From assembly GCA_050943735.1 (NCBI GenBank), contig JBMNPT010000005.1, forward strand, positions 4,209 through 68,208: a DNA stretch of 64,000 nucleotides, written 5' to 3'. Both the position numbers and the translations under genes were made by a program. Below the pieces are notes generated by a model that worked only from the letters and a program-made list of their open reading frames with translations, did no database searches and was not told the DNA's origin. Positions within the stretch are counted from its first letter, which is position 1, and each line of letters opens with the position of its first letter. This document shows positions 42,695 through 56,012 of the stretch, piece by piece. The stretch comes from Eubacteriales bacterium. Lineage in GTDB: Bacteria; Bacillota; Clostridia; Oscillospirales; RGIG577.

Positions 42695-42708
42695 CAATCA
42701 CAAAAATA

Positions 42709-42760
42709 CAAAAAGCCCACAGTGGTACGTAATGTACTCACTGTGGGCTTTCTTTTTTTG
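42709..42760. terminator. bidirectional terminator (purD / convergent membrane-protein gene)
   Basis: AGCCCACAGTG/CACTGTGGGCT stem followed by a T-run. Confidence 0.8.
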
Positions 42761-42762
42761 TT

Positions 42763-43419
42763 TTATCGCCGGGCGCGCCGGGAAACACGTTGTACTCTGG
42801 AAGGAGCGGTGGTACGCCGCCCAGAAGGGGCGAGAGGAGCATCGCTATAGGTAAGACGGGATGCTTGCCACAGCAAAATTGCATAGGCCAGCGTGAGCAG
42901 CACTGACAAAAAAGCCATCACAATGACCAGCAAAGTGGAGTAAATGTTTTGAATCTGCAAAGCGATGAGCGCAACCAGAATGATTAGTAAATTGCCAAAC
43001 AACAAAGCACTACGCAGGCGAATGACCCGGTCCCGAAATGCGTACTGACGCAGGTCAATGGACAGACGAACCAACCCGCTGCAAATAGAAAAGTCGGCGG
43101 CCAAAATGAGAAGGGTATTACAGACTTCCAATGGGTAAACCAACTGGTCAAAATATGGCAGGCTACTCAGTAAAGGATCAAAAGGGGCCAACAACAAATA
43201 CGACGTGATGGCCATGGCTCCTGCAAGAAAAAATCCTGCTCGCAAAAAATTGCGATTGGTACGGTACAGAGAAAGTACCCCCCACAACATCAGGGAAAGA
43301 CAAAGCAAATCCACCAGAAAGGTAAGTGGTCCTGTGCCTGTGGGAAGAATTCCCAGTAGGACTCCCCAGAATATTTTTTTGAGATGGAGCTGCCGTTCAG
43401 CAGCGGTCATTGGTTCCAT
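42763..43419 (-). CDS. hypothetical polytopic membrane protein with a highly basic C-terminal tail
   Basis: About 218 aa from MEPMTAAERQ with about 6 predicted TM helices and a C-terminal RRTTAPSRVQRVSRRARR. The upstream 5' extension of the track ORF (to 43737) is AT-rich non-coding. Promoter TTTACA-17-TATAAT on the minus strand at 43462-43490. Confidence 0.6.
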   Translation of the reverse strand: MEPMTAAERQLHLKKIFWGVLLGILPTGTGPLTFLVDLLCLSLMLWGVLSLYRTNRNFLRAGFFLAGAMAITSYLLLAPFDPLLSSLPYFDQLVYPLEVCNTLLILAADFSICSGLVRLSIDLRQYAFRDRVIRLRSALLFGNLLIILVALIALQIQNIYSTLLVIVMAFLSVLLTLAYAILLWQASRLTYSDAPLAPSGRRTTAPSRVQRVSRRARR

Positions 43420-43508
43420 AAGGTTTTTCCATTTCTGATTTGATAGATTCCATTGAGCTATATTATAGGGCAAATTTACTAATTTGTAAATACAAAAACA
43501 ACAAAATT

Positions 43509-43522
43509 CGAAAATTTGTTCG
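43509..43522. promoter_or_regulatory. LexA (Cheo/SOS) box 1, CGAAAATTTGTTCG
   Basis: 13 of 14 matches to the Firmicutes consensus CGAAC-N4-GTTCG. It lies 7 nt upstream of the -35. Confidence 0.6.
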
Positions 43523-43528
43523 ACTTTA

Positions 43529-43557
43529 TTGACATAAGATGGGAAATATTGTAAAGT
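43529..43557 (+). promoter_or_regulatory. promoter of the phage-like cluster regulator
   Basis: TTGACA, 17-nt spacer, TAAAGT. Confidence 0.5.
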
Positions 43558-43562
43558 AAAAT

Positions 43563-43576
43563 AGAACAAATGTTCT
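43563..43576. promoter_or_regulatory. LexA (Cheo/SOS) box 2, AGAACAAATGTTCT
   Basis: Perfect GAAC-N4-GTTC core, 6 nt downstream of the -10 and just upstream of RBS AAGGAGG. Confidence 0.7.
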
Positions 43577-43593
43577 AAAGGAGGTGCTTCATT

Positions 43594-43977
43594 ATGAATG
43601 CGGCACAGAAAATCGCGTATTTGAGTCAGTACAAACAAATAGATTTGGAAATTGATCGCATGATTCATGAAGTGGATGTGTGGAAAAAACGGTTGGAGCC
43701 TTTTTCTACAGAGGAGGAAAAAGTGAGGGTGATCCATTTACTGCGGCACATCAATCGGGAGATTGACCGATTGGTGGATCTGCGTGAAGCCATGGAACGC
43801 TCCATCCGTACTGTGGATGACAAAACTCTGCAGACCTTGTTGCGCTGCCGTTACATAGACGGGCTTACCTGGGAAGCGTTGGCGGAACAGATGGTCTATT
43901 CCTATCAGCATGTGTTTCGTCTGCACAAAAAAGCCATTGATCTTCTGGAACTGGACCAAGATGTGATACAATGCTAG
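43594..43977 (+). CDS. sigma-70 region-4-like HTH protein, phage late-gene activator candidate (positional analogue of PBSX Xpf)
   Basis: 127 aa. The C-terminal LLRCRYIDGLTWEALAEQMVYSYQHVFRLHKKAIDLL is a sigma region 4 HTH pattern. The N-terminus is a coiled coil. It is the first gene of the cluster. Confidence 0.7.
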   Translation: MNAAQKIAYLSQYKQIDLEIDRMIHEVDVWKKRLEPFSTEEEKVRVIHLLRHINREIDRLVDLREAMERSIRTVDDKTLQTLLRCRYIDGLTWEALAEQMVYSYQHVFRLHKKAIDLLELDQDVIQC

Positions 43978-44050
43978 TCCCTCTCTGTGCTACGGTATGT
44001 TTGCGGTCGGGAAACCGGCTGGCAATTCAATCACAGAGAGGAGAAGAGGA

Positions 44051-44218
44051 ATGAAAAAACTGGCAGATCAAAAGGAAATCCAGGCCTTTTGGACCTCTGT
44101 GATGCGCAGTGAGGAGGCAACCATCGCCGAACGCTTCAAAGCCTCTGAACTGCTGGCAAAAAACAGGGAAGAGGAGGCTGTGGATCTGAAACTCAAATGG
44201 TTCAAGGAAGACGAGTGA
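44051..44218 (+). CDS. 55-aa terminase small-subunit-like protein (C-terminal module only)
   Basis: It lies immediately upstream of, and overlaps, the terminase large subunit gene. ERFKASELLAKNREEE resembles the RLKALELLGK motif of small terminases. RBS GAGGAGAAGAGGA. Confidence 0.4.
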   Translation: MKKLADQKEIQAFWTSVMRSEEATIAERFKASELLAKNREEEAVDLKLKWFKEDE

Positions 44219-45444
44219 CAAAAGCACGTACTCTGCGGCGCGAGGTTTGCAATTCTTGGGTGTACAGTCAGGTGGATGACTACTCCCATCGGATTGAGGT
44301 GTACTGCGGAGGTGCGGGAAGTGGTAAGTCCTACGGCGCCATGCAGAAAATGCTTCTCAAAGCGCTCAACTACCGGCGGCGTGTGCTGGTGGTGCGCAAG
44401 GTGGCGGACACTCTGCGGGCCAGCGTATTTGAACTGCTTCTCCAATTGCTGCGGGACAGCGGTCTGTACGAAGTGGCCCGCATCCGGCGCAGCGAAATGC
44501 GTGTGACTCTGCCCGGCGGCAGTGAGTTCCTGTTCCGGGGGATTGACGACCCCGAAAAGGTGAAGTCCATCACTGGACTCACCGACATTGTCATTGAGGA
44601 AGCTACGGAACTGTCCCGGGAGGATTTCATTCAGCTCAATTTACGTCTGCGCTGCCTGGAGCCCTTTCCTCAGATTTATGTGCTGTTCAATCCCATCAGC
44701 AAAGCCAACTGGGTGTACGATCGATTTATTCTCCATCCACCCGAAAATTGCAGGCTGGTCCGCACTACCTGGAAGGACAACCGGTTCCTACCCGAAGAAT
44801 ATGGCAGGGAGCTGGAGACCATGGCCGAAACAGATCCCGTCAAGTACCGCATTTACGCGCTGGGAGAATTCGCCACGCTGGACCGGCTGGTATTTCCCCA
44901 GGTGGAGGTTCGGGCCATCTCCCCCCAGGAGGTGGAAGGGCTGCCTTTCTTCGGGGGACTGGATTTCGGCTACGTAAACGATCCTACCGCTTTGGTATGG
45001 GGACGGTATGATCGAACCAATCGTCGGATCTTCATTTTGGGGGAGTACTTTGGCAAGGGTATGCTCAATCGGCAGATCGCCGAAAAAATTCAACAGATGG
45101 GACTTTCCAAGGAAATCTGGACTGCCGACAGCAGTGAAATTAAGAGCATCGATGAGCTGCGTTCCCTGGGACTCTCCCGGGTGCGGGCCGCCCGGAAAGG
45201 TCCCGGCAGCGTTCGCTTTGGCCTGAGCTGGTTGGCAGGCAGAAGCCTGATCTTACAGGAGAACTGCCCCCGCTTGCTGGAGGAGTTCGAAAATTACACC
45301 TGGAAAAAAGATCCCCGTTCCGGGGAGTATTGCAATGAACCCATTGACAGCTGGAACCATGGCATCGATGCCCTGCGCTACGGATTGGAGCATCAGATGC
45401 GAGGCGGTGGCATGGAAGTGCTGAAATGGAACAAGGAGGTTTGA
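44197..45444 (+). CDS. terminase large subunit, PBSX/XtmB type
   Basis: Walker A VYCGGAGSGKSYG and Walker B-like LTDIVIEEATE, about 415 aa. An alternative GTG start at 44215 forms a GTGA overlap. Confidence 0.9.
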   Translation: MVQGRRVTKARTLRREVCNSWVYSQVDDYSHRIEVYCGGAGSGKSYGAMQKMLLKALNYRRRVLVVRKVADTLRASVFELLLQLLRDSGLYEVARIRRSEMRVTLPGGSEFLFRGIDDPEKVKSITGLTDIVIEEATELSREDFIQLNLRLRCLEPFPQIYVLFNPISKANWVYDRFILHPPENCRLVRTTWKDNRFLPEEYGRELETMAETDPVKYRIYALGEFATLDRLVFPQVEVRAISPQEVEGLPFFGGLDFGYVNDPTALVWGRYDRTNRRIFILGEYFGKGMLNRQIAEKIQQMGLSKEIWTADSSEIKSIDELRSLGLSRVRAARKGPGSVRFGLSWLAGRSLILQENCPRLLEEFENYTWKKDPRSGEYCNEPIDSWNHGIDALRYGLEHQMRGGGMEVLKWNKEV

Positions 45445-45445
45445 T

Positions 45446-46717
45446 ATGGCATTCACCAATGAGGAAATGGCCAGGACACTGGCCCGGGCGGTGGCCGAAC
45501 AAACTGATTTCGCCCAGCGCTGTCAGGTGGCCAGACGCTATTATCAGAATCGCAACGACATTCTCCACACCGGAGCGGTTCCCCGCTGGCAGACCCAGCC
45601 CAATCCCCTGCGCAACAGCGATGTGCGCATCAGCCACAACTGGCACAGCATTCTGGTCAATCAGAAAACATCCTATCTGTTCAGCTACGCGCCCACTCTG
45701 GATGTGGGAGATCGCAGGCTCAACGCTCGTCTGACCCAGATGCTGGGGGATGGATATGGAAAAATGATGAAGGATCTCTGTGTGGAGGCCAGCAACTGTG
45801 GGGTGGCATGGCTCTTCCTGTGGCTGGATGATGAACGGCAGCTGCAAATGCAGGTGATGGACAGCGAACAGATTGTCCCCATTTATTCGGATGATTTACA
45901 GAAAACCCTCAAGGCTGTCCTTCGTATTTACACCCAGCGGGATGAGGCCGATCAGCCGGTGACTCGATGCGAGCTGTGGGATGAGGAAACTATGCAGACC
46001 GGTCGTTGGAACGGCGGCCAATGGGTGCCTGACAATCAGCAGATCTACTATCATGGTATCGGTCAGATTCCCTTTATTCCCTTCTGGAACAATGGAGAGG
46101 GAACTGGCGACCTGGAGATGTACCAAGGTCTGATTGATCAATACGATCGGGTGGTGAGCGGATTTGCCAACGATCTGGCAGACATTCAGGAGGTGATCTT
46201 CGTCATCCGCAATTACGGAGGCGAGGATTTGGGGACCTTCCTGGGTGAGCTCAAACGGTACAAGGCCATCAAGGTGGACAGCGACGGCGGTAACAGCGGT
46301 GTGGACACCATGCAGATTCAGATTCCGGTGGAGGCTCGTATGGAGTTCCTGGAACTGCTCAAAAAGCAGATCTTTATCTCCGGTCATGGGGTATTCCCCG
46401 CTCAGGACAATCTGCCCAACACCAGCGGGGTGGCTTTGCAGTACATGTACAGTCTGCTGGAGATCAAAGCGGGCTTGCTGGAAGTGGAGTTCCGTCAGAG
46501 TCTGGCCCAACTGGCCCGTCTGCTGCTGCGGCACATGGGCTGCCGCAAAGAACTGACCATCCGTCAGACCTGGATCCGCAATGCCATCCGCAATGAGACG
46601 GAACTGGCGCAGATCTGTGCGGACAGCAGTCAGCTGCTCAGCCGTGAAACCATTCTGCGGCATCATCCCTGGGTGGAAGATCCACAGGAAGAGATGGAGT
46701 CGGACGGTCAGGAATGA
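45446..46717 (+). CDS. portal protein, SPP1 Gp6-like
   Basis: 423 aa. ARRYYQNRNDILH...LRNSDVRISHNWHSILVNQKTSYLF matches the Gp6-family N-terminal pattern. It follows the terminase gene. Confidence 0.85.
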   Translation: MAFTNEEMARTLARAVAEQTDFAQRCQVARRYYQNRNDILHTGAVPRWQTQPNPLRNSDVRISHNWHSILVNQKTSYLFSYAPTLDVGDRRLNARLTQMLGDGYGKMMKDLCVEASNCGVAWLFLWLDDERQLQMQVMDSEQIVPIYSDDLQKTLKAVLRIYTQRDEADQPVTRCELWDEETMQTGRWNGGQWVPDNQQIYYHGIGQIPFIPFWNNGEGTGDLEMYQGLIDQYDRVVSGFANDLADIQEVIFVIRNYGGEDLGTFLGELKRYKAIKVDSDGGNSGVDTMQIQIPVEARMEFLELLKKQIFISGHGVFPAQDNLPNTSGVALQYMYSLLEIKAGLLEVEFRQSLAQLARLLLRHMGCRKELTIRQTWIRNAIRNETELAQICADSSQLLSRETILRHHPWVEDPQEEMESDGQE

Positions 46718-46771
46718 ACATGTGGTGAGGGGAGGATCCCGGGTGTGTGGTGGGAAACAAGGAGGAATACC

Positions 46772-47215
46772 ATGGAACAGAATAACTTGTCTGCTGCCGC
46801 TGTACTGGCCCAGATTGTACAGCTGATGCAGCAATATGCGGGGATGCAGTCGGCACCAGCCGCTGGTATGCCCCAGAGCACTGGCGGAGATGATCCGCTG
46901 ACCCGTCTGCAAGAGGAAAACAGACAGCTGCAATCCCGTCTGCAGCTCAGCCAGCAGGATATGCTGCTGGAACGGGCTCTGCTGAAAGCAGGCTGCCGCA
47001 ATACCACTGCGGCCAAAGCTTTGGTACAGCCTCAGTGGCTGGAAGGAGAGCAGGCTTTGCAGCCTGAGGAGATTGTACAGGCTTTGATGGAAGAGGCCCC
47101 CTATTTGTTTGAAGAGCCTCAGCCTCTGGGCTATCGTCCTGTGGCCGGTCAGGGTCAGGACTCGGAAGAGGCTCTGCGGGAAATGATTCGCAAAGGTTTG
47201 AGAGGAGAGATGTGA
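46772..47215 (+). CDS. capsid scaffolding protein
   Basis: About 147 aa, helical and coiled coil (LQEENRQLQSRLQLSQQDMLLERALL). It sits between the portal and the major capsid. RBS AAGGAGG. Confidence 0.65.
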   Translation: MEQNNLSAAAVLAQIVQLMQQYAGMQSAPAAGMPQSTGGDDPLTRLQEENRQLQSRLQLSQQDMLLERALLKAGCRNTTAAKALVQPQWLEGEQALQPEEIVQALMEEAPYLFEEPQPLGYRPVAGQGQDSEEALREMIRKGLRGEM

Positions 47216-47216
47216 G

Positions 47217-48128
47217 ATGGCATTTAACACACTGGAATTTGCAAAGGTATTTCAGAAGGAACTGGACAAGCTGGTGGTGGCACAGTGCACCAGCGGCTGG
47301 ATGGAAAGCAACGCCGGTATGATTCAGTACAGCGGCGGTGATGAAATCAAAATTCCCATGCTGACTGTGGATGGTCTGGCGGATTATGATCGGGAAGATG
47401 GCTTTACCCGCGGTGCAGTCAATCTGAGCTTCCAGACCCTGAAGCTCAGCCAGGACAGAGGCAGAAGTTTTCAGATCGACGCCATGGATGTGGATGAAAC
47501 CAGCTTTGGCGCCAGCGTGAGCAATATTGTGGGAGAGTTTCAGCGCAGCCGCGTAGTACCTGAGATTGACAGCTATCGTTACAGCCGCATTGCTACGCTG
47601 TGCAGTGCAGACCATGCCACTACTTATACGGCGGATGCTTCTACCATTCTGACAACGCTGCGGTCCGATATTGAAAACATCTACGAAAAGGCCGGTGAAA
47701 TCGATCTGGTGATCACCCTGTCTTCCGCCGCAGCCAATCTGCTGGAAGGCAGCAGTGAATTCAACGCCATGGTGGACGCCGGTGATTTCAAGAGTGGAGA
47801 ATACTCCTGCCGCGTACGTTATTTCAATGGCAATCCCATTGTACGTGTCCCCAGTGCTCGTATGAAATCGGCCTATACCTTCTATGATGGTGTGACCGAA
47901 GGACAGACCGCCGGCGGTTTTGTGCCCGCCCCAGAAGCCAAGCAGATCAACTGGATCATCAGCAGCCGCACCGCTCCCATTGCAGTATCCAAAACCGATC
48001 AGGTGCGGATTTTCGATCCCCTGCACAACCAGAGCATGAACGCCTGGAAGGTGGATTACCGCAAGTACCATGATCTCTTTGTACCCACCAACAAGCTGGA
48101 TGAAATGTGGGTCAACATGGAGGGGTAA
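47217..48128 (+). CDS. major capsid protein (XkdG/YqbE-like)
   Basis: 303 aa, assigned by position and sequence style (MAFNTLEFAKVFQKELDK...). Confidence 0.8.
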   Translation: MAFNTLEFAKVFQKELDKLVVAQCTSGWMESNAGMIQYSGGDEIKIPMLTVDGLADYDREDGFTRGAVNLSFQTLKLSQDRGRSFQIDAMDVDETSFGASVSNIVGEFQRSRVVPEIDSYRYSRIATLCSADHATTYTADASTILTTLRSDIENIYEKAGEIDLVITLSSAAANLLEGSSEFNAMVDAGDFKSGEYSCRVRYFNGNPIVRVPSARMKSAYTFYDGVTEGQTAGGFVPAPEAKQINWIISSRTAPIAVSKTDQVRIFDPLHNQSMNAWKVDYRKYHDLFVPTNKLDEMWVNMEG

Positions 48129-48130
48129 TC

Positions 48131-48424
48131 ATGGATATGGAAGTCCTGGCACAGCGCCTCCTGCAGCGGGAACCGGCACTGGAAACCAGGGAGACCGCTC
48201 TGGAACGCCTGGAAGAGGCGGCCCAGCGGATTCGAAATTATACCCATCTGGATGAGGTGCCGGATGAACTGGAAGGGGTACTGCTCTCCATGGCACAGCG
48301 CCTGGAGGAAGAGGGCGTGGAAGCCATTTACGAAGGGGACACCAAGGTGCAGTACGCTCATACAGAGCCGGAAGCTCTATATTACTCCCAACTCAACCGG
48401 TTCCGAAAGAGGTGCGGACCATGA
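48131..48424 (+). CDS. head-tail connector protein (gp6-like/YqbG-like)
   Basis: 97 aa and helical. It is the first small ORF after the capsid gene. Confidence 0.6.
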   Translation: MDMEVLAQRLLQREPALETRETALERLEEAAQRIRNYTHLDEVPDELEGVLLSMAQRLEEEGVEAIYEGDTKVQYAHTEPEALYYSQLNRFRKRCGP

Positions 48425-48777
48425 CCAGTCGGATTCTACAGCGGCTGATGAATCAACGAGGAGACATCTGGCGCGGTGAAAAACGGGTGGAAAATGGTGT
48501 GCAATTTGTGGAATACCAACTGCTGCAGAGTGGCGTACCCTGCCGGGTATCCCAGATTGGCACTGGGCGTACCATCCTGAAAAAACCTCAGGGAGAGGAA
48601 CTCTCTGAAATTGAGCAGGAGCTCAAAGGCTTTTTTCCATGGGACGCAGATGTACAGAGTGGCGATCGGCTGGTGGTGACCCTGAACAAAACCCAGCACA
48701 TTCTGGAGGTGGGTGAGGTTTTTGTATACCAAAACTCCCACCGGGAGTGTAGACTGAGCCGTTTGCAGACGGTATGA
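48421..48777 (+). CDS. head closure / head-tail adaptor protein
   Basis: 118 aa with an ATGA overlap with the preceding ORF. Beta-rich pattern typical of SPP1 gp16-like proteins. Confidence 0.6.
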   Translation: MTSRILQRLMNQRGDIWRGEKRVENGVQFVEYQLLQSGVPCRVSQIGTGRTILKKPQGEELSEIEQELKGFFPWDADVQSGDRLVVTLNKTQHILEVGEVFVYQNSHRECRLSRLQTV

Positions 48778-48791
48778 AAGGAGAGGGTGAA

Positions 48792-49211
48792 ATGGAACAG
48801 CAAATTCGGCAGGCACTGGTTAAAGCACTGGGTGATGCCCTGCCCCAGTGCCCTCTTCACACCGAGCGGATGCCTCAGCATGGAATTCGAGACGGGCTGT
48901 GGATCTATCCAGCGGGGCTGGGTCTGGAAGGACGCATTGGCTGTCAGGAGGCCTGGTCACAATGGGAGATTCGCTATCTGCCGCCGATGGAAACACCCAG
49001 ACAAACCATGGTCGAACGACTCCGCCAAGTGGTGGAAGCTGTACAGACTTTGCAGCTGGACGACGGGCCCCTGCGGCCTGTCATCCAGCAGGCAGAGTGC
49101 GACGGTTCCATGGCAGTGGTGCTTTTGCGTGTGAGATGCAGGGTGCGCATTGAACAATCTTCTCCCATGATGCGCAAATTCACCTGGGAGATGGAAATGG
49201 AGGGAAATTGA
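48792..49211 (+). CDS. tail-completion/neck protein candidate
   Basis: 139 aa with RBS GGAGAGGG. It is the last ORF before the sheath gene. Function is assigned by position only. Confidence 0.5.
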   Translation: MEQQIRQALVKALGDALPQCPLHTERMPQHGIRDGLWIYPAGLGLEGRIGCQEAWSQWEIRYLPPMETPRQTMVERLRQVVEAVQTLQLDDGPLRPVIQQAECDGSMAVVLLRVRCRVRIEQSSPMMRKFTWEMEMEGN

Positions 49212-50495
49212 GTGAACAATACGGGAAATAAAACGTTGCCCGGCGTTTATGTGGATTTTATCAGCAGCCGCCCGCTCACCATTCAGGTGGGCAGTCAGGG
49301 GACTGTACTGCTGCCCATGGCGCTGGATTGGGGCGACAAGGGAAAGGTCACCGAAGTGGTGGCCGGAGATGATACACGTCTCTCTCTGGGATACAGCATG
49401 CAGGAGATTCTGCCTCTGCGGGAGGCTATGAAAAATGCTGACCGGGTACTGGTGTATAAGCTCAACGGCGGAGAAAAAGCTTCCGCGACACTGGGAAGCG
49501 GAACGGTAACTGCCGCTCTGCCCGGCAGCCGTGGAAATGCACTTTCTCTTCAGGTGACTGGCGAGGAAGCTCCCTTTGTGGTGGATACCTGGCTGGATGG
49601 TGTTCTGATGGACAGCCAGGAAATTTCGGAGTATTCCGAATTTCAGCCCAATGGGCTGGTGGAGATCAATGAGGCAGGCACTCCTGCCAAGGCTTTGGTC
49701 ACCCTTTCCGGCGGTACGGATGAAGAGGAACAGACCACCGACTGGGAGAGCTTTTTGCCATCCGCCCAGACCCTTTTCTTTGACACAATGGCTTGTATGA
49801 GTGACGAAGAATCGGTGAAGGAACAGGTGGTGTCTTTTGTACGGCTGATGCGGGAACAGGAAGGCAAAAAGATTCAGGCAGTGATGGCCAACAAGGCGGC
49901 CGATTACGAGGGTATCATCTCGGTACAGGGTGGCGTGGTACTGGAGGGGGATGAAATTCTCCCTGCGGAAACCGTATGCGCTTATATTGCCGGCATGACC
50001 GCGGGCGCTGCCATCAATGAGAGCTGCACCCATCACATTTACCAGGGTGCGGTGGATGTGACCAGTCGGATGACCCGCGCTCAAAAAGAAGAGGCAGTTG
50101 GTCAGGGTCACATGATTCTGGATGTGGACGCCGCCGGTCAGGTGTATGTGGTCTATGATATCAATACCCTGCGCTCCGGTCTGCAGGTTGACTTCCGTAA
50201 AAACCGGGTGCTGCGGGTACTGGATGGGATTCATCAGGATGTGAAGTCTCTCTTTGAGGGCAGCTATCTGGGTAAGGTGAGCAATGACCCCAACGGCCGC
50301 AGTCTGCTGCGGGGCAGTTTGGTGGAATACTTTGGCAAGCTGGAACAGATGGGCGCCATCACCGGCTTCCAGAGCGATGACATTTCGGTAGAGCCCGGCA
50401 GCGATTCCGACAGTGTGATCATTGGCATTGCTGTGGCTCCGGTGGACAGTTGTGAAAAATTCTACATCACCGTACAGGTGAACCAGGAGGTGTAA
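49212..50495 (+). CDS. contractile tail sheath protein (XkdK-like)
   Basis: 427 aa. The N-terminal LPGVYVDF is typical of sheath proteins. GTG start after RBS GGAGGG. Confidence 0.88.
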   Translation: MNNTGNKTLPGVYVDFISSRPLTIQVGSQGTVLLPMALDWGDKGKVTEVVAGDDTRLSLGYSMQEILPLREAMKNADRVLVYKLNGGEKASATLGSGTVTAALPGSRGNALSLQVTGEEAPFVVDTWLDGVLMDSQEISEYSEFQPNGLVEINEAGTPAKALVTLSGGTDEEEQTTDWESFLPSAQTLFFDTMACMSDEESVKEQVVSFVRLMREQEGKKIQAVMANKAADYEGIISVQGGVVLEGDEILPAETVCAYIAGMTAGAAINESCTHHIYQGAVDVTSRMTRAQKEEAVGQGHMILDVDAAGQVYVVYDINTLRSGLQVDFRKNRVLRVLDGIHQDVKSLFEGSYLGKVSNDPNGRSLLRGSLVEYFGKLEQMGAITGFQSDDISVEPGSDSDSVIIGIAVAPVDSCEKFYITVQVNQEV

Positions 50496-50496
50496 T

Positions 50497-50970
50497 ATGG
50501 CCAATTATGTGAGATTGCGGGATACCATCTCCTCCAAGGAGGGACGGGCCTACATCACCATCAATGGGAAAAATAGAGAACTGTTTGAAATCAGCCGCCT
50601 CAAGGCTTCTTTGCAGTACAAAATTCAAAAACGTCAGATGCTGGGCCATCGTATGGTGCAGCACAAGGTGGTAGGAGCTGAGGGCACCGGTGAAATGACA
50701 ATGTATTTCATGAACAGCGAAATGCTACAGCTGGCCCGTCAGTACATCAAAGAGGGCAACCCGGGCTCTCTCAAACTGCAGGTGGTCAATGAGGATAGCG
50801 CCAGCAGTGTGGGCCGTCAAGAAGTGATGCTGCTCAACGTAATGCTGGAACAGGTGCCCATCACCTGTCTGGATGACAGCTCGGACGATCCGGTAACCAT
50901 CAGCTGCAGCTTCACCTTTGACGATATCGAAGTGCTGGAGAGCTTTGCTCTGCCGGAAAACTATCGATAA
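50497..50970 (+). CDS. tail tube protein (XkdM-like)
   Basis: 157 aa, directly after the sheath gene. Sequence includes EGRAYITINGKNRELFEISRLKA... Confidence 0.85.
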   Translation: MANYVRLRDTISSKEGRAYITINGKNRELFEISRLKASLQYKIQKRQMLGHRMVQHKVVGAEGTGEMTMYFMNSEMLQLARQYIKEGNPGSLKLQVVNEDSASSVGRQEVMLLNVMLEQVPITCLDDSSDDPVTISCSFTFDDIEVLESFALPENYR

Positions 50971-50982
50971 CAGGTGCGGACG

Positions 50983-51492
50983 ATGGAACCGGAGGTTTAC
51001 GCCGCACGTTGGGCGGAAGAGTCAGAACCGTTGGCGGAAGAACTGATACAGCTTCAGGAGATGGAAGATTCCATTCAGCAACAGGAATCATGGATGGAAC
51101 CGGTGCAGGATGTGGGGGCACAGGTCGCCGGGGAGGAGAGCCTTCAGAGTGCCGAATCCCAGGAAATGCTTGCTGCGGTATCGGAGATTTCTGTGGATGG
51201 AGAAGAAACTACAGGGAGTGGAGAATGGAGCCCTCAAAATCCGCTCCTATTTACGGAGTCTGCTCCGGCAGCCTCGACTACACAGCAGCTTTGGACTCAA
51301 ACACTACTCCAGGCAGCCGCTTGGAATACTCTACGCCAGGAGTCCAGTCAGCAGGTGGTGAACAACATCGCGCCCAACATTGTGATCGAAATGGGCAATC
51401 CGGTGGCAGGTACCACTCCCCAGGCTGTGGCTGAGCAGATTCGCCGGACCTTGCGGGAAGAAATGCTGTGCTGTGCAGAGGGGGTGTACTAA
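50983..51492 (+). CDS. 169-aa acidic E/Q/S-rich protein in the tape-measure position (possible miniature tape measure)
   Basis: Intact ORF with SD-like AGGTG 6 nt upstream and a TAATG overlap with the next gene. The C-terminal NIAPNIVIEMGNPVAGTTPQAVAEQIRRTLREEM resembles, from memory, tape-measure C-termini. Function is uncertain. Confidence 0.5.
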   Translation: MEPEVYAARWAEESEPLAEELIQLQEMEDSIQQQESWMEPVQDVGAQVAGEESLQSAESQEMLAAVSEISVDGEETTGSGEWSPQNPLLFTESAPAASTTQQLWTQTLLQAAAWNTLRQESSQQVVNNIAPNIVIEMGNPVAGTTPQAVAEQIRRTLREEMLCCAEGVY

Positions 51493-52082
51493 TGGAATAT
51501 TGTGTGTATTTGACAGAGGGAGCCAGACGGTATCCACTGCCGGTCAATCCTCAGAATATACGGTCCAGTTGGGAGAGTGGTGCCCGGCAGACCGCGGTAT
51601 TGGGGATTGGACAGGTGGTACTGCCCGGAGAAGAAACCCTGGAGCATTTTACCTTTACCGTTCCGCTGGACAATGAGTGGGTGTCGCGGCTGCGCCGGTG
51701 GCGTTCGCAGGGTACTGTACTCACTATGCAGGCGATAGGCAAACAGCTTTACCTGCAGCGGGAAGTGATTCTGTATCGAATGACTCAGACCCAGCTGGCT
51801 GGCCGGGAAGAGGAGTGTGAAGTGGAATTGGAATGGATGGAATACCGGGGGTACCGCAAAGCGGAGCTGCTGCGTAAGCAGTGGCAGGAGGAAGGAAGTC
51901 TTTCTGCCCCGGTATCCTCCGGCGCTACCTATACGGTGGTCAAAGGGGATTGTCTGTGGCGCATTGCGCAGCGAATGCTGGGGGATGGCAGCCGGTATGG
52001 GGAAATTTATCAGCTCAATCAGGACATCATCACCAATCCCAATTTGATCTATCCGGGGCAAGTTCTGCGGCTGCCCGGCTGA
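51492..52082 (+). CDS. LysM-domain tail protein (XkdP-like)
   Basis: The N-terminal YPLPVNPQNI...FTFTVPL resembles XkdP-type tail proteins. The C-terminal LysM is TYTVVKGDCLWRIAQR...IYPGQVLRLPG. Confidence 0.8.
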   Translation: MEYCVYLTEGARRYPLPVNPQNIRSSWESGARQTAVLGIGQVVLPGEETLEHFTFTVPLDNEWVSRLRRWRSQGTVLTMQAIGKQLYLQREVILYRMTQTQLAGREEECEVELEWMEYRGYRKAELLRKQWQEEGSLSAPVSSGATYTVVKGDCLWRIAQRMLGDGSRYGEIYQLNQDIITNPNLIYPGQVLRLPG

Positions 52083-52098
52083 CAGAAAGGAGAACTTC

Positions 52099-52587
52099 AT
52101 GGGAACTTTGGAAGGATTTTTACACCCGGAGGAAATGGGACCCGTTCGGGTCCCCCTTTCTCCCCGGTTTCGGGATGAACAGGGAAATCCCATTCAATGG
52201 GAGCTGCGTCCTGTATCTGCCCGGGAAAACGAAGCGCTGATCCGCCGGCACACCCGACAGGATACCCAGGGAAACTGGAGATTGGATCGAGCAGCCTATC
52301 GCATGGCCTTTGCAGCCTGCGGGGTGGGGTGTCCCGACTTGGAGGATGCCCAGCTGCAGCAGCGTTACCACGCGCTGGGACGGGAAGATCTGTTGGGGCG
52401 GATGCTGCTGGCGGGAGAATTTGCGGCTCTCTATGAAAAAGTGAGCCGTATCAGCGGCTTTGGACACTCTCTGGAAGATGAGGTGGACGAAGCAAAAAAA
52501 GAATCCGGCACGGTGAGTGGGAATTCGCCTGCGCCCACTATGCCCTTCAGCGGCATCACCTGCTGCCCGGACAGTTCGCAGCCCTGA
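52099..52587 (+). CDS. XkdN-like tail assembly chaperone (short, zero-frame form)
   Basis: SPRFRDEQGNPIQWELRPVSARENEAL...LLGRMLLAGEFAALYEKVSRISGF is an XkdN-family pattern. It contains an A7 slippery site at 52494-52500. Confidence 0.75.
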   Translation: MGTLEGFLHPEEMGPVRVPLSPRFRDEQGNPIQWELRPVSARENEALIRRHTRQDTQGNWRLDRAAYRMAFAACGVGCPDLEDAQLQQRYHALGREDLLGRMLLAGEFAALYEKVSRISGFGHSLEDEVDEAKKESGTVSGNSPAPTMPFSGITCCPDSSQP

Positions 52588-52643
52588 GCAGGCGGGAAAA
52601 AGCATTCATCTGGGCTTCGGCCCTGGTGGAAAAGGAGGGATGA
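52494..52643 (+). other. predicted -1 programmed frameshift site (A_AAA_AAA) and 47-codon -1 frame extension of the chaperone
   Basis: The zero frame reads GCA AAA AAA GAA. The -1 frame from 52500 reads RIRHGEWEFACAHYALQRHHLLPGQFAALSRREKAFIWASALVEKEG and stops at 52641-52643, 1 nt before the next ATG. Confidence 0.55.
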
Positions 52644-52644
52644 C

Positions 52645-53598
52645 ATGCAGCTGTGGCTGGAAAACAGACAAACCGGTCAGATGGTGGAAATCACCGGCGC
52701 TTGTGTGGAAATTCAGCTGTGTCATAAGCGCAACAATGGAGCCTCCGTTTTGGATGTGACCTGGCTGTGTGAAGAGGTGTTCTTTGAAAATGGATGCACC
52801 ATTCGGCTCACCGATGGACAGCAATGTGCTTTTCACGGGAGGCTTTTCAGATGGAGCCGATCCAGCGACGGATTGGTTCACCTGCACGCGTACGATCAGC
52901 TGCGCTATCTAAAAGCCAAGGACACCATGCTTTTGCAAGGCCGTTCCCTGGCCAGCCTATTGCGGGAAATGTGCCGGGTCTTTCAGCTGAAAGCGGGCAC
53001 TATGGAAGATCCGCCGGGCTTGGTACAGGATGAAATGCTGGTGGGTCAAACGCTGCTGGACATTCTGTATCGCAAAATCGCAGAAGTACAGCGCCTCACC
53101 GGCAAAGCGTATATTCTGCGGGACGAGGACGGAGCCATCTGTCTTCGGGCGGAGGATTCTCTGCATCTGCCGCTGTTGCTGGCGGATGAGACCACCTGCC
53201 TTTCCTATGAGGTGGAGAGAGATATTGACCGGGATACCTGCAATCGGGTGGTACTGGCTCACGAAAGCATCGTGTTTGGCATGCGCAAGGTCTATGAGAC
53301 AGCGGACGCCCAGCAGACCCAGCAGTATGGGGTTTTGCAGTATTATCAGCGGGTGAATCAGAATCTCACGTCAGCTCAAATCCGCGCCATCGGTGAAAAT
53401 CTGCTGGCGGAAAAAAAGGGAGAGAGATACCGCATATCCCTGTCGGCGATCTCTGATCTCTCTGTACAGGGTGGGAGTGTGATTGGCGTTACACTGGATG
53501 GCCTGGGACAGGGATTGTATCGGGTTTTGCAGGTCACCCATCGGCTGCAGAGCGGACGGGAGACCATGGAATTGGAGGTGGAAAATATTGCTGGATGA
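52645..53598 (+). CDS. XkdQ/YqbQ-like baseplate hub (gpD-like) protein
   Basis: 317 aa, assigned by position and sequence pattern (LHAYDQLRYLKAKDT..., GKAYILRDEDGAICL). Confidence 0.75.
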   Translation: MQLWLENRQTGQMVEITGACVEIQLCHKRNNGASVLDVTWLCEEVFFENGCTIRLTDGQQCAFHGRLFRWSRSSDGLVHLHAYDQLRYLKAKDTMLLQGRSLASLLREMCRVFQLKAGTMEDPPGLVQDEMLVGQTLLDILYRKIAEVQRLTGKAYILRDEDGAICLRAEDSLHLPLLLADETTCLSYEVERDIDRDTCNRVVLAHESIVFGMRKVYETADAQQTQQYGVLQYYQRVNQNLTSAQIRAIGENLLAEKKGERYRISLSAISDLSVQGGSVIGVTLDGLGQGLYRVLQVTHRLQSGRETMELEVENIAG

Positions 53599-53851
53599 AA
53601 TTAAGGAAATCGCCCAGCGTGTGGTGGACAGCAACACCTTTTTACAGCTGGGAACCGGACGGGTGCGTTCGGTCAGCCCCTTGACGGTGGAATTGACCTC
53701 CAATGGGCTGGTGCTGCCCAATGTGATGTTGATGGTAGGAGCCTCTCTGAGTGAGAGCGACCGCTTTCAAAATCTGGAAGGCGGAGAGCAGCTGTTGCTG
53801 CTGGGCCCCGCTTGCGGCGGGAAATTTGCAGTATTGGACGTGATGCTATGA
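53588..53851 (+). CDS. XkdR-like small baseplate protein (DUF2577-like)
   Basis: 87 aa from TTG 53588, which lies 7 nt after GGAGGTG. Sequence LLDEIKEIAQRVVDSN...GRVRSVSPLTVEL. Confidence 0.65.
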   Translation: MLDEIKEIAQRVVDSNTFLQLGTGRVRSVSPLTVELTSNGLVLPNVMLMVGASLSESDRFQNLEGGEQLLLLGPACGGKFAVLDVML

Positions 53852-54237
53852 CCGGCGCAGGATATGAAACCATTTGGGATAAAGCCCTGGAAGGCCCCAG
53901 CCGCACCTTCTGTATTTCTCTGGAAAACGGAAGGATGCAGGGAATGTGTGACGGCGTGGAAAGCGTACGTCAGGCGGTGTGGAAATGCCTGGCCACCCAG
54001 CGGGGAGAGCATTTGATCTATGGCCCCTATTACGGGCTGGATCGAAATGCACTGGTACAGGCGGATCCCGCCCAATTGCAGGCTGCCGCGGAACAGGCTG
54101 TCCGCAGCGCTCTATTGCGGGACCCCAGAGTCTGGTCGGTGGATCGGGTACAGGCCCTCCGTCAGGGTGACAGCCTTTCCCTGACGGTGGAAGTGACCAC
54201 CCGGTTTGGTACCGTCCAGTTGACAGAGGAGGTGTGA
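53848..54237 (+). CDS. XkdS-like baseplate protein (DUF2634-like, gpW/gp25-like)
   Basis: 129 aa with an ATGA overlap. VRQAVWKCLATQRGEHLIYGPYYGL is typical of this family. Confidence 0.7.
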   Translation: MTGAGYETIWDKALEGPSRTFCISLENGRMQGMCDGVESVRQAVWKCLATQRGEHLIYGPYYGLDRNALVQADPAQLQAAAEQAVRSALLRDPRVWSVDRVQALRQGDSLSLTVEVTTRFGTVQLTEEV

Positions 54238-54238
54238 G

Positions 54239-55315
54239 ATGTTTGAAGAAATGACCTTTGATAAATTGATGGAGGGAATGCTTTCCCATGTGAGTGACAC
54301 CCTGGACAAACGGGAAGGCAGTGTGGTGTACGACATGCTTTCCCCTATGGCGGCAGAACTTGCCGGGCATTACAGCCAGCTGGGAGCGGCACTGGAACTG
54401 CTGTTCTGGGAAACCTCCTCCGGCATTTGGTTGGATCGCTTGGGAGAACAGTTTGGCATTCCCCGCCGTCAGGCTACCAATGCAGTGTACCGGGGTGTTT
54501 TTACCGATCAGGAGGACTTGCCTGCTCAGGTGGAAACCGGCAGTCGGTTTCGCTGGGAGGAATATACTTTCGCGGTAGAGGATTCTCTGGGAGAGGGAAA
54601 GTATACGCTGGTTTGTGAGCAACCGGGAAGCGGTGCCAATGCGGCTACCGGAACCATTCTCCCGGTGCTCAATCTGCCCTCTCTGCAGTCGGCAGTGCTG
54701 GAACAGCTGCTGGAAGAAGGAACTGACCAGGAAAGCGATGAACAGTACAGGGCCCGGGCGATGGAGCTGCTGGCGCGTCCCGCCTTTGCGGGCAATATAT
54801 CTGCCTATCAGGAAGAGACGTTGTCCATTGGGGGAGTGGGATGTGTCAAGGTTTTCCCCGTCTTTGATGGAGGCGGTACAGTGGGGCTGGTGATTGGAAA
54901 CGCCCAGGGACGTGCAGTGGATGAAATGGTACTGCAAAAAGTACAGGAGCATTATGCGCTGGAGGGAGAACAGAGCGTCACTCCCATTGGCCATCAGGTG
55001 ACTGTCAAAAGCTGTGTGGATCGGACTGTACCAGTGGAGCTGGCGGTGGATTTGGTGCCGGAGGCTGACTGGAGCAGTGTACAGTCACAGGTTCAGAATC
55101 GGGTGGCCCAATGGATGAGTCAGATTGATTTTGAGGAAGAGAGAGTGTTTGTAGCGCGGCTGATGGCGGCAGTACTGGAGGTGGACGGTGTGGCTGACGT
55201 CCCCATGGCTCAGGTGAAGCTGGATGGCAAAAATGCCAATCTGGTGCTGCAAAAAGATATGGAAACTTTTGAAACACCGGTCTGCGGAACAGTGACGGTA
55301 AGGCAGGTGAGCTGA
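54239..55315 (+). CDS. baseplate J-like protein (XkdT-like)
   Basis: 358 aa. The N-terminus is typical of baseplate J (MLSHVSDTLDKREGSVVYDMLSPMAAEL). Confidence 0.85.
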   Translation: MFEEMTFDKLMEGMLSHVSDTLDKREGSVVYDMLSPMAAELAGHYSQLGAALELLFWETSSGIWLDRLGEQFGIPRRQATNAVYRGVFTDQEDLPAQVETGSRFRWEEYTFAVEDSLGEGKYTLVCEQPGSGANAATGTILPVLNLPSLQSAVLEQLLEEGTDQESDEQYRARAMELLARPAFAGNISAYQEETLSIGGVGCVKVFPVFDGGGTVGLVIGNAQGRAVDEMVLQKVQEHYALEGEQSVTPIGHQVTVKSCVDRTVPVELAVDLVPEADWSSVQSQVQNRVAQWMSQIDFEEERVFVARLMAAVLEVDGVADVPMAQVKLDGKNANLVLQKDMETFETPVCGTVTVRQVS

Positions 55316-55316
55316 T

Positions 55317-55874: not shown

Positions 55875-55890
55875 AGAGCCGCAAGGCGGG

Positions 55891-55923
55891 AAAACGGATG
55901 GGGAAAATCTCCATCCGTTTTTC
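55891..55923 (+). terminator. intrinsic terminator ending the phage-like cluster
   Basis: ACGGATGGGG/CTCCATCCGT stem followed by T5. Confidence 0.8.
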
Positions 55924-55948
55924 ATTGGCTGCAAGAGCGTCATACCAA

Positions 55949-55977
55949 TTGCATAAAGGAGATTTTTGGAGTATAAT
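55949..55977 (+). promoter_or_regulatory. sigma-A promoter of the tagA-like/thyX/tmk operon
   Basis: TTGCAT, 17-nt spacer, TATAAT. Confidence 0.55.
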
Positions 55978-56012
55978 AATCGTAAGTATGTCTAAAAGAA
56001 TGAGGGCTTTCT

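Follow-up and report, generated by a model that had tools for sequence, protein, structure and literature searches.

A predicted LexA operator at the promoter of an Ltr-type regulator gene heading a PBSX-family structural cluster in uncultured Clostridia

LexA control is established for the GIL01 phage, SaPI operon I, and SigN of pBS32, so LexA wiring of phage-derived elements is not new in principle. The SaPIs, a group of mobile satellites, depend on a helper phage and have an Stl repressor of their own; their operon I, made up of capsid-remodelling and terS genes, is reportedly under LexA control according to Ubeda et al. in 2007 (Mol Microbiol 65:41). PBSX of Bacillus subtilis is a defective prophage that yields a tailocin or GTA-like particle. 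It is induced by DNA damage, is governed by an Xre repressor and the sigma-like factor Xpf, and carries a long tape measure, fibres, and a lysis cassette. In GIL01, a tectivirus of Bacillus thuringiensis, promoter P1 is repressed by host LexA at dinBox1 and dinBox1b (PMC4551915). Proteins of the Ltr superfamily of Gram-positive phages, namely RinA, ArpU, LtrA (Sigma70_r4), LtrB (DUF1492), and LtrC, are required to switch on the morphogenesis operon (PMC3753634). GTA-like packaging of DNA has been reported to occur widely among anaerobic gut Firmicutes, and most of the responsible gene clusters are unidentified (PMC12946183). The LexA motif is described as well defined across Firmicutes, and the LexA protein of B. 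subtilis bound to sites that came from gut bacteria not in culture (PMC3998124).

Here, a 64-kb window (the whole stretch of DNA that was analyzed) was found to contain a 12.3-kb PBSX-family cluster headed by a regulator gene. For the promoter of this gene, direct LexA control is the best-supported reading, and a well supported one, of the sequence evidence set out below.

LexA-like boxes at the regulator promoter

A simple sigma-70 consensus scan of positions 42700–56100 gave the SigA-type promoter in front of the regulator gene as the best plus-strand match (10/12; Table 1). The sole other plus-strand match (9/12) lies inside the capsid gene. The first-pass annotation had named this site the only plausible promoter of the cluster, and the sequence is where it was placed. 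The predicted promoter, which has a weak −10 hexamer, serves the regulator gene and probably the whole cluster as well.

Table 1. Features of the cluster and its promoter region
Feature	Position	Strand	Basis or remark
Divergent 218-aa multi-pass membrane protein gene	42763-43419	-	Gene call from L001
Promoter-like site of the divergent gene, TTTACA-17-TATAAT	43462-43490	-	11/12, consensus scan
Upstream LexA-like box CGAAAATTTGTTCG	43509-43522	.	Read from sequence; predicted
SigA-type promoter TTGACA-17-TAAAGT	43529-43557	+	-35 at 43529-43534, -10 at 43552-43557; predicted
Downstream LexA operator AGAACAAATGTTCT	43563-43576	.	Perfect GAAC-N4-GTTC core, spacer AAAT; predicted
Ribosome-binding site AAAGGAGGTG	43578-43587	+	Regulator ATG at 43594
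Regulator, 127 aa, Ltr homologue with sigma-region-4-like C terminus	43594-43977	+	Profile and structure matches; predicted
Intergenic hairpin pairing with the next gene's ribosome-binding site	43978-44050	+	Predicted fold
Truncated small-terminase-like ORF, 55 aa	44051-44218	+	Alignment to L282 protein
Head-and-tail structural genes	44215-55874	+	Pfam, PHROG, and NCBIfam matches
Terminator-like hairpin ACGGATGG-9-CCATCCGT, then T-run	55894-55923	+	Read from sequence

Re-reading of the sequence found every motif of the first-pass annotation where it had been placed. The spacings it gave for the two boxes, 7 and 6 nt, were coordinate differences; counted as intervening bases, 6 nt separate the upstream box from the −35 and 5 nt separate the downstream box from the −10, with the box centres 54 bp apart. 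Both boxes overlap or abut core promoter elements, as for Firmicute LexA operators, and the downstream box overlaps the expected transcription start.

The downstream box fits, with a perfect core, the Firmicute LexA dyad CGAAC-N4-GTTCG, which has the clostridial variants GAACnnnnGTTC and GAACnnnnGTTT. In core and spacer (GAACAAATGTT) it equals the recA and lexA operators of Clostridioides difficile (GAGAACAAATGTTTGT and AGGAACAAATGTTTGC, respectively), both of which have been validated by SPR. The recA operator used in SPR was CAAGAGAACAAATGTTTGTAGA, and the recA and lexA sites were the slowest-dissociating of that study. Compared with the recA 14-mer, 12 of 14 positions of the window's box are equal and the last two differ; the corresponding box of a related lineage, L162 (AGAACAAATGTTTG), is identical to it. 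The upstream box has one mismatch to CGAAC-N4-GTTCG and reads GAAC-N5-TTC on the opposite strand (CGAACAAATTTTCG), where one half-site is perfect with an optimal spacer and the other is defective. It is accommodated by the relaxed clostridial search motif GAACnnnnnTTC, and together with its flanks it forms an inverted copy (82%) of the downstream box region.

For scoring, a matrix was built from eight SPR-validated C. difficile LexA operators, as a proxy for the host's own SOS operators. Within the 64-kb window the downstream box ranked first at 21.1 bits and the upstream box second at 13.7 bits, the latter in the range of the published non-binders potC (12.9) and rplR (14.1). The matrix is crude, in that other published non-binders, rpoB (17.0) and soj (16.6), score as high as binders. 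An intragenic GAACTGCTGTTC at 54395–54406 was taken as chance because of its GC-rich spacer, its score of 12.6 bits, and its position in the interior of the baseplate J gene.

Occurrence of the boxes in related elements

As recovered by the searches, the element family comprises only four or five lineages, and promoter regions could be aligned for four of them (the window, L028, L166, and L162). Relative to the window, the regulators of the other three are 44–67% identical and their TerL proteins 63–78%. The sole long invariant blocks in the alignment are TTGACA and the 12-nt AGAACAAATGTT; the promoter spacing is kept and the −10 retains TAnnnT, while the spacer and the rest of the −10 have drifted. 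The first-pass annotation had proposed two LexA boxes and expected the dyads to recur at orthologous loci. This holds for the downstream box, which is present in 4/4 lineages with the region available. The upstream box was seen in 2/4, the window and L028 (CGAAAAAATGTTCG at 109–122), and was not found in the aligned promoters of L166 or L162. Because of this restriction, its defective half-site, and its ambiguous score, the case for two boxes is weaker than the case for one.

In L166 and L162 a second, identical box (AAGAACAAATGTTTC) lies between the regulator gene and the terS-like gene, a position at which the window and L028 have no box. Such a second copy would fit control of the cluster at two or more points by a host factor that acts in trans.

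More distant relatives were then compared. None of 133 loci with 25–49% identical regulator homologues had GAAC-N4-GTTC within 300 bp upstream, the background being 11 matches in 1.93 Mb. Likewise, none of 80 viral loci with 39–59% identical TerL had a box at that position; in three of these, a lone core match was seen over 1.1 kb upstream. Ordinary phage relatives, more than 200 of them, thus have no such box at that position, and P0021, P0016, and P0006, close TerL or regulator homologues, are ordinary phages without it. Regulator scans of genome, metagenome, and viral sequences returned only relatives of at most 49% identity, all without boxes, and the pattern TTGACA-N27-31-AGAACAAATGTT gave 35 viral matches, none akin to the element. 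By these comparisons the predicted box is specific to the window's element family. TTGACA with GAACAAATGTT just after the −10 does recur in unrelated Firmicute phage contigs that hold no homologue of the 127-aa regulator, in one case ahead of a LexA_DNA_bind-only gene.

Gene content and chromosomal setting of the cluster

The regulator matched phrog_36 (“transcriptional regulator”) with an E value of 5e-20. Its matches to DUF1492 (20.5 bits, cut-off 21.5), Sigma70_r4 (weak, 17.3 against 24.1), and RinA TIGR01636 (17.9 against 31.9) were all below cut-off, as were those to sigma-70; PF07374 is listed in precomputed tables for two relatives, P0003 and P0009. For the AlphaFold model (pLDDT 87), the top Foldseek matches were to sigma region 4, with 8jzt at 1.2 Å over 46 columns and 2h27 at 2.9 Å over 58 columns, all at E values of at least 0.1. 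The gene stands directly upstream of the terS-like ORF and then TerL, which is the placement of an Ltr gene. An activator role is predicted for the 127-aa protein. No clear direct repeats for activator binding were seen in 43420–44060, a stretch that includes the region upstream of the terS-like gene.

The hairpin between the regulator and terS-like genes has a predicted energy of −30 kcal/mol (z −3.5), and none of 200 shuffles folded as well. Analogous hairpins of different sequence are predicted in L166 (z −4.2), L162 (z −4.6), and L028 (z −1.7). No credible Rfam family was found in 43300–44300, a match to SNORA12 (E 0.076) being taken as spurious. LexA is probably not the sole control of the cluster, with a late-activator homologue as regulator and a predicted hairpin that would bury the next gene's ribosome-binding site.

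The 55-aa ORF that follows aligns (43% identity, E 2e-12) only to residues 136–191 of a 192-aa Terminase_2 protein. It thus corresponds to the C-terminal 56 residues of a small terminase, with the DNA-recognition domain missing, a feature associated with GTAs, and the truncated form is kept in L028, L162, and L166. L282, the source of the full 192-aa protein, is a related true phage.

The structural genes run from a PBSX-family TerL (44215–45444; TIGR01547, E 7.5e-65) through an SPP1-type portal, scaffold, major head protein, two adaptors, and a 145-aa protein to the sheath, tube, a 172-aa protein of unknown function, a LysM protein, an XkdN chaperone, and YqbQ, and end with DUF2577, the sheath initiator, baseplate J, and a gp48-like protein. 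Matches to Phage_TAC_5, YQBQ, Sheath_initiator, and Baseplate_J mark the tail genes as a PBSX-type module. The same structural gene order was found in L001 (identical to the window; a 16-kb Logan contig with the exact regulator), L162, L163, and L285.

Profile searches of the cluster found no normal-length tape measure, fibre, or lysis genes. No Xre repressor, tape measure, fibres, or lysis cassette was found in 42763–56013, and all are present in L286, a related true prophage. For some 15 kb to each side, the window likewise lacks genes for an Xre/CI repressor, an integrase, replication, or lysis, in agreement with the first-pass annotation, which had reported no CI/Xre gene. L162 and L163 differ in this respect: an Xre-type gene directly precedes their copy of the LexA-boxed promoter, so replacement of a repressor by LexA need not apply to all lineages. 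The first-pass annotation had proposed that LexA took over from the phage lysogeny switch; what is best supported for the window is direct LexA control of the regulator promoter in an element with no repressor of its own.

On one side the cluster borders purE/M/N/H/D; on the other come tagA, thyX, tmk, and more housekeeping genes, and the terminator-like hairpin closes the cluster ahead of the tagA promoter. L285 was reached through baseplate J homologues and covers the right flank only, the promoter lying more than 10 kb upstream of that gene. There, the element precedes the same tagA-thyX-tmk-...-yceG run, nine host genes with their order kept. The host proteins of L285 are only 34–78% identical to those of the window and the element proteins 30–48%. 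The shared right flank supports vertical inheritance of the cluster at a fixed chromosomal locus, and the low identity of the flanking housekeeping proteins points to long retention; the earlier description of a domesticated element is borne out by this arrangement. Inheritance at a fixed locus and the absence of integration, replication, and lysogeny genes are traits looked for in GTAs.

On the other side of the promoter region, the divergent membrane protein has five to six hydrophobic segments and no matches in Pfam, PHROG, or NCBIfam. Homologues with 31–33% identity occupy the same position in L162 and L166, where they stay adjacent to the element, and the hexamers of the divergent promoter are recognizable in L028, L166, and L162. 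LexA repression of this promoter was considered unlikely, since the upstream box lies about 55–70 nt upstream of its expected start. A mirrored minus-strand promoter associated with the upstream box was rejected because the best −35/−10 pair needs a 21-nt spacer.

Proposed switch and its relation to known systems

Since the regulator promoter carries a conserved predicted LexA site, the cluster is most likely switched on directly by DNA damage, without a phage repressor. In an undamaged cell, a LexA dimer on AGAACAAATGTTCT would sit over the transcription start and block RNA polymerase; in the window's sublineage, the weaker site upstream of the −35 probably adds to the repression. Upon DNA damage, active RecA would bring about LexA self-cleavage and the promoter would open, allowing transcription of the Ltr-type activator gene and then of the 12.3-kb head-and-tail cluster. 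The activator, once made, would turn on the structural genes or permit their expression, with this second stage probably acting at the conserved region and hairpin before the truncated terS-like gene. LexA binding in this organism, SOS induction of the cluster, the role of the activator, and production of particles are inferred from the sequence evidence. Taken as a whole, this model of LexA operator, activator, and downstream cluster is considered likely.

Three other readings were weighed against it. It is scarcely credible that the two dyads have no regulatory role and arose by chance, as near-palindromes rich in AT within an intergenic region of similar composition. Single motifs are indeed unremarkable within the 64-kb window, where GAAC-N4-GTTC has two matches against 0.81 expected (at least two in 26/100 shuffles) and the 14-mer with at most one mismatch has one against 1.17 expected. 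However, when the intergenic region (180 bp, 27% GC) was shuffled 100,000 times with dinucleotides preserved, 124 shuffles gave a perfect core, 46 the 14-mer with at most one mismatch, 6 two sites with at most two mismatches, and none a perfect core with a second site, so that co-location of both boxes is far beyond chance. The downstream dyad is, moreover, invariant in four lineages, and the two dyads hold the top two matrix scores of the window.

The palindrome might instead be the operator of a regulator other than LexA, either the Ltr-like protein, at both its own promoter and the late one, or some other host factor, with the match to the Cheo box coincidental. LexA occupancy of the dyad is a sequence-based prediction, and the 14-mer shared by L166 and L162 occurs both at the regulator promoter and just before the terS-like gene, which is where a late activator is expected to act (PMC3753634). 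This reading is nevertheless improbable: the core and spacer are identical to two validated LexA operators, the Ltr proteins studied so far bind short direct repeats rather than a dyad (PMC3753634), and the same motif takes the same promoter position in unrelated phage contigs that lack the regulator. The window and L028 have no box before terS, and the box therefore cannot be a general late-promoter element of the family. Alternatively, the sites could be genuine LexA sites left from the early promoter of an ancestral phage, with the cluster a decaying remnant whose SOS wiring has no present output. In keeping with decay, the cluster has no tape measure of normal length, no tail fibres, and no lysis genes, its small terminase is incomplete, and its tail-gene order is rearranged relative to PBSX. 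Yet the structural ORFs are intact in every lineage observed, and conservation extends to the odd order (tube, 172–219-aa protein, LysM, XkdN, YqbQ) as well as to the truncated form of the terS-like ORF. The long retention implied by L285 and an invariant −35 and operator amid drifted neighbouring bases also speak against a remnant, which we regard as unlikely.

Under the LexA-operator model, a more far-reaching interpretation is that the cluster is a working contractile-tailed GTA- or tailocin-like “viriform”, hard-wired to the SOS response through LexA, the Ltr-type activator, and the structural operon, vertically inherited in an uncultured Clostridia family, and equipped with a small terminase devoid of DNA binding and no conventional tape measure. 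This interpretation is put forward tentatively, as a possibility we hold to be on the doubtful side. If true, the cluster would be a third Gram-positive GTA-like type besides PBSX and FpGTA, and the first GTA-like system with a readable, directly LexA-gated master switch. Because GTA-like packaging is reported to be widespread but most of its gene clusters have yet to be named, the conserved LexA-to-Ltr signature could also act as a search handle for domesticated clusters, and it predicts that DNA damage would be the inducing treatment in experiments on organisms not easily cultured.

The window element itself is new. Like GIL01, it is phage-derived and would use host LexA at a SigA promoter as its damage switch, with a strong CGAAC-N4-GTTCG-type site and a weak, half-site-like auxiliary near the transcription start. 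GIL01, however, is a replicating temperate phage that needs the small co-repressor gp7, whereas the window element is fixed in the chromosome and has no known gp7-like partner; both GIL01 boxes lie downstream of +1, whereas here they bracket the promoter; and the LexA targets are early and replication genes in GIL01 but a late activator in the window. For SigN of pBS32, LexA directly represses the sigma-type regulator gene of a prophage-like element, and DNA damage de-represses this regulator, which drives a downstream programme, both as predicted for the window. SigN differs in that it is a complete sigma factor, is carried by a plasmid, and has further promoters, one of them autoactivated, and its regulon largely excludes prophage structural genes, whereas the 127-aa Ltr-type protein heads a chromosomal structural operon. 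With the SaPIs the window would share direct gating by host LexA of a packaging and morphogenesis operon in a Firmicute phage-related chromosomal element, although here the operon is a full head-and-tail set.

PBSX resembles the window cluster in its TerL (TIGR01547), XkdN, XkdP-like LysM protein, YqbQ/XkdQ, and XkdS/T/U-type baseplate, and both are chromosomally fixed, but the window cluster is without the Xre repressor, Xpf, long tape measure, fibres, and lysis cassette. FpGTA of Faecalibacterium likewise consists of structural genes that are passed on vertically, with no replication genes among them, in an anaerobic lineage of Clostridia, and its small terminase also has no obvious DNA-binding domain (PMC12946183). 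It is of short-tailed phage origin and has two operons and lysis genes (PMC12946183), in contrast to the single, contractile-tail-type operon of the window cluster; LexA control of FpGTA is not reported in that paper, in which “LexA” has no occurrence.

Like the members of the Ltr superfamily, the regulator is small and is encoded directly upstream of terS-terL, and its C-terminal domain is predicted to resemble sigma region 4. In the phages studied, ltr comes after the replication module and its control runs through the phage cI repressor (PMC3753634), whereas the window's ltr-type gene is the first of the element, behind a LexA-boxed SigA promoter. What is new relative to these systems is a predicted LexA operator on an Ltr-type late-activator gene, its occurrence in an element that uncultured Clostridia have kept at a single chromosomal locus while diverging to family level, and a switch, simple and open to experiment, for a candidate system of the GTA or tailocin kind.

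The regulator promoter, its boxes and the cluster behind it

Direct reading of 43200-43900 recovered every element listed by the first-pass annotation, namely two LexA-like (Cheo) dyads, a TTGACA-17-TAAAGT promoter and the regulator ATG (see table). The order of these elements and the flanking of the promoter stood, while the distances of 7 and 6 nt required correction: the upstream box ends 6 nt before the -35, and the downstream box covers the expected transcription start because it lies only 5 nt past the -10. The claim that this is the only plausible promoter of the cluster was borne out by a consensus scan of 42700-56100, where it was the top plus-strand match and the sole other one was weaker and inside the capsid gene. 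The two boxes with their flanks are an 82% inverted copy of each other.

Features of the regulator promoter and the cluster (window coordinates)
Feature	Position	Strand	Remark
Divergent multi-pass membrane protein	42763-43419	-	no family match
TTTACA-17-TATAAT	43490-43462	-	near-consensus promoter of membrane-protein gene (consensus scan)
Upstream box CGAAAATTTGTTCG	43509-43522		
-35 TTGACA	43529-43534	+	then 17-nt spacer
-10 TAAAGT	43552-43557	+	
Downstream box AGAACAAATGTTCT	43563-43576		
Ribosome-binding site AAAGGAGGTG		+	strong; before regulator ATG
Regulator start codon ATG	43594	+	
Regulator, 127 aa	43594-43977	+	phrog_36 "transcriptional regulator", E 5e-20
terS-like ORF, 55 aa	44051-44218		between regulator and TerL
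TerL, PBSX family			after terS-like ORF
Portal, SPP1 type			after TerL
Scaffold, major head protein, adaptors			after portal
Sheath, tube			after adaptors
172-aa protein			after tube; no family match
LysM protein, then XkdN chaperone			after 172-aa protein
YqbQ, sheath initiator, baseplate J, gp48-like protein			cluster end
Terminator-like hairpin ACGGATGG-9-CCATCCGT plus T-run	55894-55923		closes cluster
Promoter-like TTGCAT-17-TATAAT	within 55894-55990		3' of terminator-like hairpin; before tagA

Over the 64 kb, GAAC-N4-GTTC occurs twice against 0.81 expected and the 14-mer, allowing one mismatch, once against 1.17, neither being beyond chance singly. When the 180-bp intergenic region (27% GC) was shuffled 100,000 times with dinucleotides preserved, the perfect core arose 124 times and the one-mismatch 14-mer 46 times; a pair of sites with up to two mismatches turned up 6 times, and the perfect core was never accompanied by a second site. 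Jointly, the boxes exceed chance expectation; individually, they do not. A matrix built from eight Clostridioides difficile operators with stable LexA binding in SPR gave the downstream box its highest score anywhere in the window (21.1 bits, exceeding all training sites), followed by the upstream box (13.7 bits). Just one other perfect GAAC-N4-GTTC exists in the window, GAACTGCTGTTC at 54395-54406 inside the baseplate-J gene; with its GC-rich spacer and low score of 12.6 bits, it is probably a chance match.

The regulator scores slightly under the Pfam cut-off for DUF1492 and matches the sigma-70 region 4 and RinA models weakly. In its AlphaFold model (pLDDT 87), a long hairpin of helices precedes a small helical domain; the closest structural matches are sigma region 4 domains, at non-significant E-values. 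Such features are consistent with the Ltr superfamily, the late activators of Gram-positive phages, in which LtrB belongs to the DUF1492 family and LtrA to Sigma70_r4; ltr genes lie directly upstream of terS and encode activators of the morphogenesis operon, with cI controlling them in the phages studied (PMC3753634).

The head-and-tail cluster contains neither a fibre gene nor a lysis gene, and no normal-length tape measure. In the 172-aa protein only the final ~50 residues are conserved; the protein might function as a minimal tape measure. At 50974-52587 the tail genes run tube, 172-aa protein, LysM, XkdN chaperone, YqbQ, an order that places the chaperone behind the LysM gene, unlike PBSX, and that is also kept in L001, L162, L163 and L285. 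On the right, the hairpin followed by the tagA promoter marks a clean transcriptional boundary of the element.

Conservation of the boxes among relatives

The regulator family is sparse, with 159 loci from three collection scans. GAAC-N4-GTTC was found within 300 bp upstream of the regulator homologue in none of 133 loci checked (25-49% identity), which are located in ordinary prophages and whose DNA has a background of 11 matches in 1.93 Mb; nor was a box found at the corresponding position in any of 80 viral loci with TerL 39-59% identical. The peculiar gene order of the element is common to only four lineages: the window with L001, an identical Logan contig; L028 (regulator 67%, TerL 78% identical to the window); L166 (50% and 63%); and L162-L165 (44% and 64%).

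The downstream box lies at the same place in all four lineages. The promoter regions read CGAAAAAATGTTCG-6-TTGACA-17-TATCCT-6-AGAACAAATGTTCG in L028, TTGACA-17-TATCTT-7-AGAACAAATGTTTT in L166 and TTGACA-17-TAATTT-6-AGAACAAATGTTTG in L162; the only long invariant blocks of the four-way alignment are TTGACA and AGAACAAATGTT, with TAnnnT retained at the -10 and the remaining promoter sequence drifted. In this alignment the downstream box stands out as a clear phylogenetic footprint. The presence of dyads at orthologous loci held only in part for the upstream box, found only in the window and L028 (54 and 55 bp centre to centre from the downstream box), the corresponding sequence being unrelated in L166 and L162. 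The latter two carry a second box copy, AAGAACAAATGTTTC, between the regulator stop codon and the terS-like gene, a copy absent in the window and L028.

LexA as the predicted binding factor

LexA is predicted by comparison with operators of other organisms. C. difficile LexA was tested by SPR by Walter et al., with the recA fragment CAAGAGAACAAATGTTTGTAGA and the lexA operator AGGAACAAATGTTTGC; the recA, lexA and uvrB operators showed the slowest dissociation among C. difficile sites (PMC4234289). The L162 box is identical to the C. difficile recA 14-mer, and AGAACAAATGTTCT of the window has the entire GAACAAATGTT core and spacer in common with these operators, ending in GTTC, the other accepted variant. 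In reverse complement, the upstream box is CGAACAAATTTTCG, with the same good half-site and spacer and TTTC replacing GTTC; it satisfies the relaxed search motif GAACnnnnnTTC of that study (PMC4234289), and in affinity class would resemble the weak, half-site-like dinBox1b of phage GIL01 (PMC4551915). The LexA motif is described as well defined across Firmicutes, and sites from uncultured gut bacteria were bound by B. subtilis LexA (PMC3998124).

TTGACA with GAACAAATGTT shortly past the -10 recurs in unrelated Firmicute phage contigs. Given this recurrence and the operator matches, a trans-acting host factor with LexA specificity is by far the most parsimonious explanation. The chief rival, binding of the Ltr-like protein to the dyad, fits poorly: the Ltr proteins studied bind direct repeats (PMC3753634), and no dyad precedes terS in either the window or L028. 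Identity in sequence, placement and conservation all support the direct LexA control proposed earlier, as a prediction, and we consider it probable that LexA represses the regulator promoter; for a contribution of the upstream box, the chances appear evenly balanced.

Among the unrelated phage contigs with the TTGACA-GAACAAATGTT arrangement, L169 (minus strand, about 8506-8800) and L184 have a promoter with a pair of Cheo boxes, one (GAACATATGTTC) between the two hexamers and the other (AGAACAAATGTTT) past the -10. The gene behind it encodes a 77-aa protein comprising the LexA DNA-binding domain only (PF01726, E 6e-18), reminiscent of phage-encoded LexA mimics.

Between regulator and terS, a hairpin at 43978-44050 (-30 kcal/mol, z -3.5) has analogues in L166 (4601-4690, z -4.2), L162 (3216-3302, z -4.6) and L028 (578-662, z -1.7); its 3' arm holds the terS ribosome-binding site, and the fold is kept while the sequences differ. 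It could serve translational control, attenuation or as an inverted-repeat protein site. For L166 and L162, the hairpin loop contains the additional LexA-like box.

In the mechanism we propose, LexA on 43563-43576 would hold the SigA promoter shut, assisted in this sublineage by the weak site at 43509-43522; upon DNA damage, LexA self-cleavage would allow the Ltr-type activator to be produced, and a second stage would open the structural operon, probably via a moderately conserved sequence and the stable hairpin burying the terS ribosome-binding site. The LexA stage is the one supported by identity, position and conservation; that the activator opens the operon is suggested by analogy with the Ltr family.

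Domestication and comparison with known systems

The element is flanked upstream by housekeeping purE, purM, purN, purH and purD, and downstream by tagA, thyX, tmk, a lysyl-PG-synthase-like gene, GNAT, DJ-1, 5-FTHF cyclo-ligase, an Rce1-like gene and yceG. The same downstream run, in window order, follows the element of L285, a contig reached via a baseplate-J homologue only 48% identical, whose element terminates with the same gp48-like gene. Because this order is shared despite host proteins being 34-78% identical (TagA 74%, ThyX 78%, Tmk 66%) and element proteins 30-48%, the element has been at the locus from before a split of about family level, all its ORFs still intact, in agreement with the domesticated element envisaged by the first-pass annotation. 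Among baseplate-J and TerL relatives, those next in similarity are true phages or prophages, such as L286 (a 477-aa tape-measure-like protein, fibre-like genes, XkdX and lysin) and L282 (full-length small terminase, tape measure >995 aa). The terS-like ORF aligns only to the C-terminal 56 residues of the 192-aa Terminase_2 small terminase of L282, and the short form also occurs in L028, L162 and L166; its DNA-recognition part has been lost, as is also reported of GTAs (PMC12946183).

The window has neither an integrase gene nor an Xre/CI or replication gene. In L162 (2136-2722; also L163, 113-569) the divergent promoter is separated from the LexA-boxed promoter of the regulator by a 587-bp cassette, which encodes a 111-aa Xre-type HTH_3 protein and contains a 43-aa ORF; L166, 75-78% identical to L162, has no such cassette. 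Because of this Xre-type gene, the claimed absence of a CI/Xre repressor is valid for the window lineage and not for the whole family. The divergent membrane-protein gene lies beside the element in the window, L162 and L166. The left flank of the latter two differs from that of the window, an ECF sigma gene paired with a DUF3298 anti-sigma gene coming after the membrane-protein gene; near the ECF sigma gene start, L166 has two overlapping weak Cheo-like sites, TCTAAAAATTGTTCGAACATTTTTTGTT (3299-3326, 8-9 bits).

The interest of the locus would be greater should the cluster prove an active GTA- or tailocin-like system, and is moderate otherwise. SaPI operon I reportedly follows the same logic as the proposed LexA-gated cluster. 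So do GIL01, where LexA keeps lysogeny through one strong and one weak site (PMC4551915), and pBS32 SigN, where LexA represses the SigA promoter of a sigma-type regulator (PMC6751061). The present system differs from these three in that the controlled gene is an Ltr-type late activator, that the boxes bracket the promoter, and that the host element is a chromosomally fixed PBSX-family cluster of uncultured Clostridia, with no tape measure, fibres or lysis genes.
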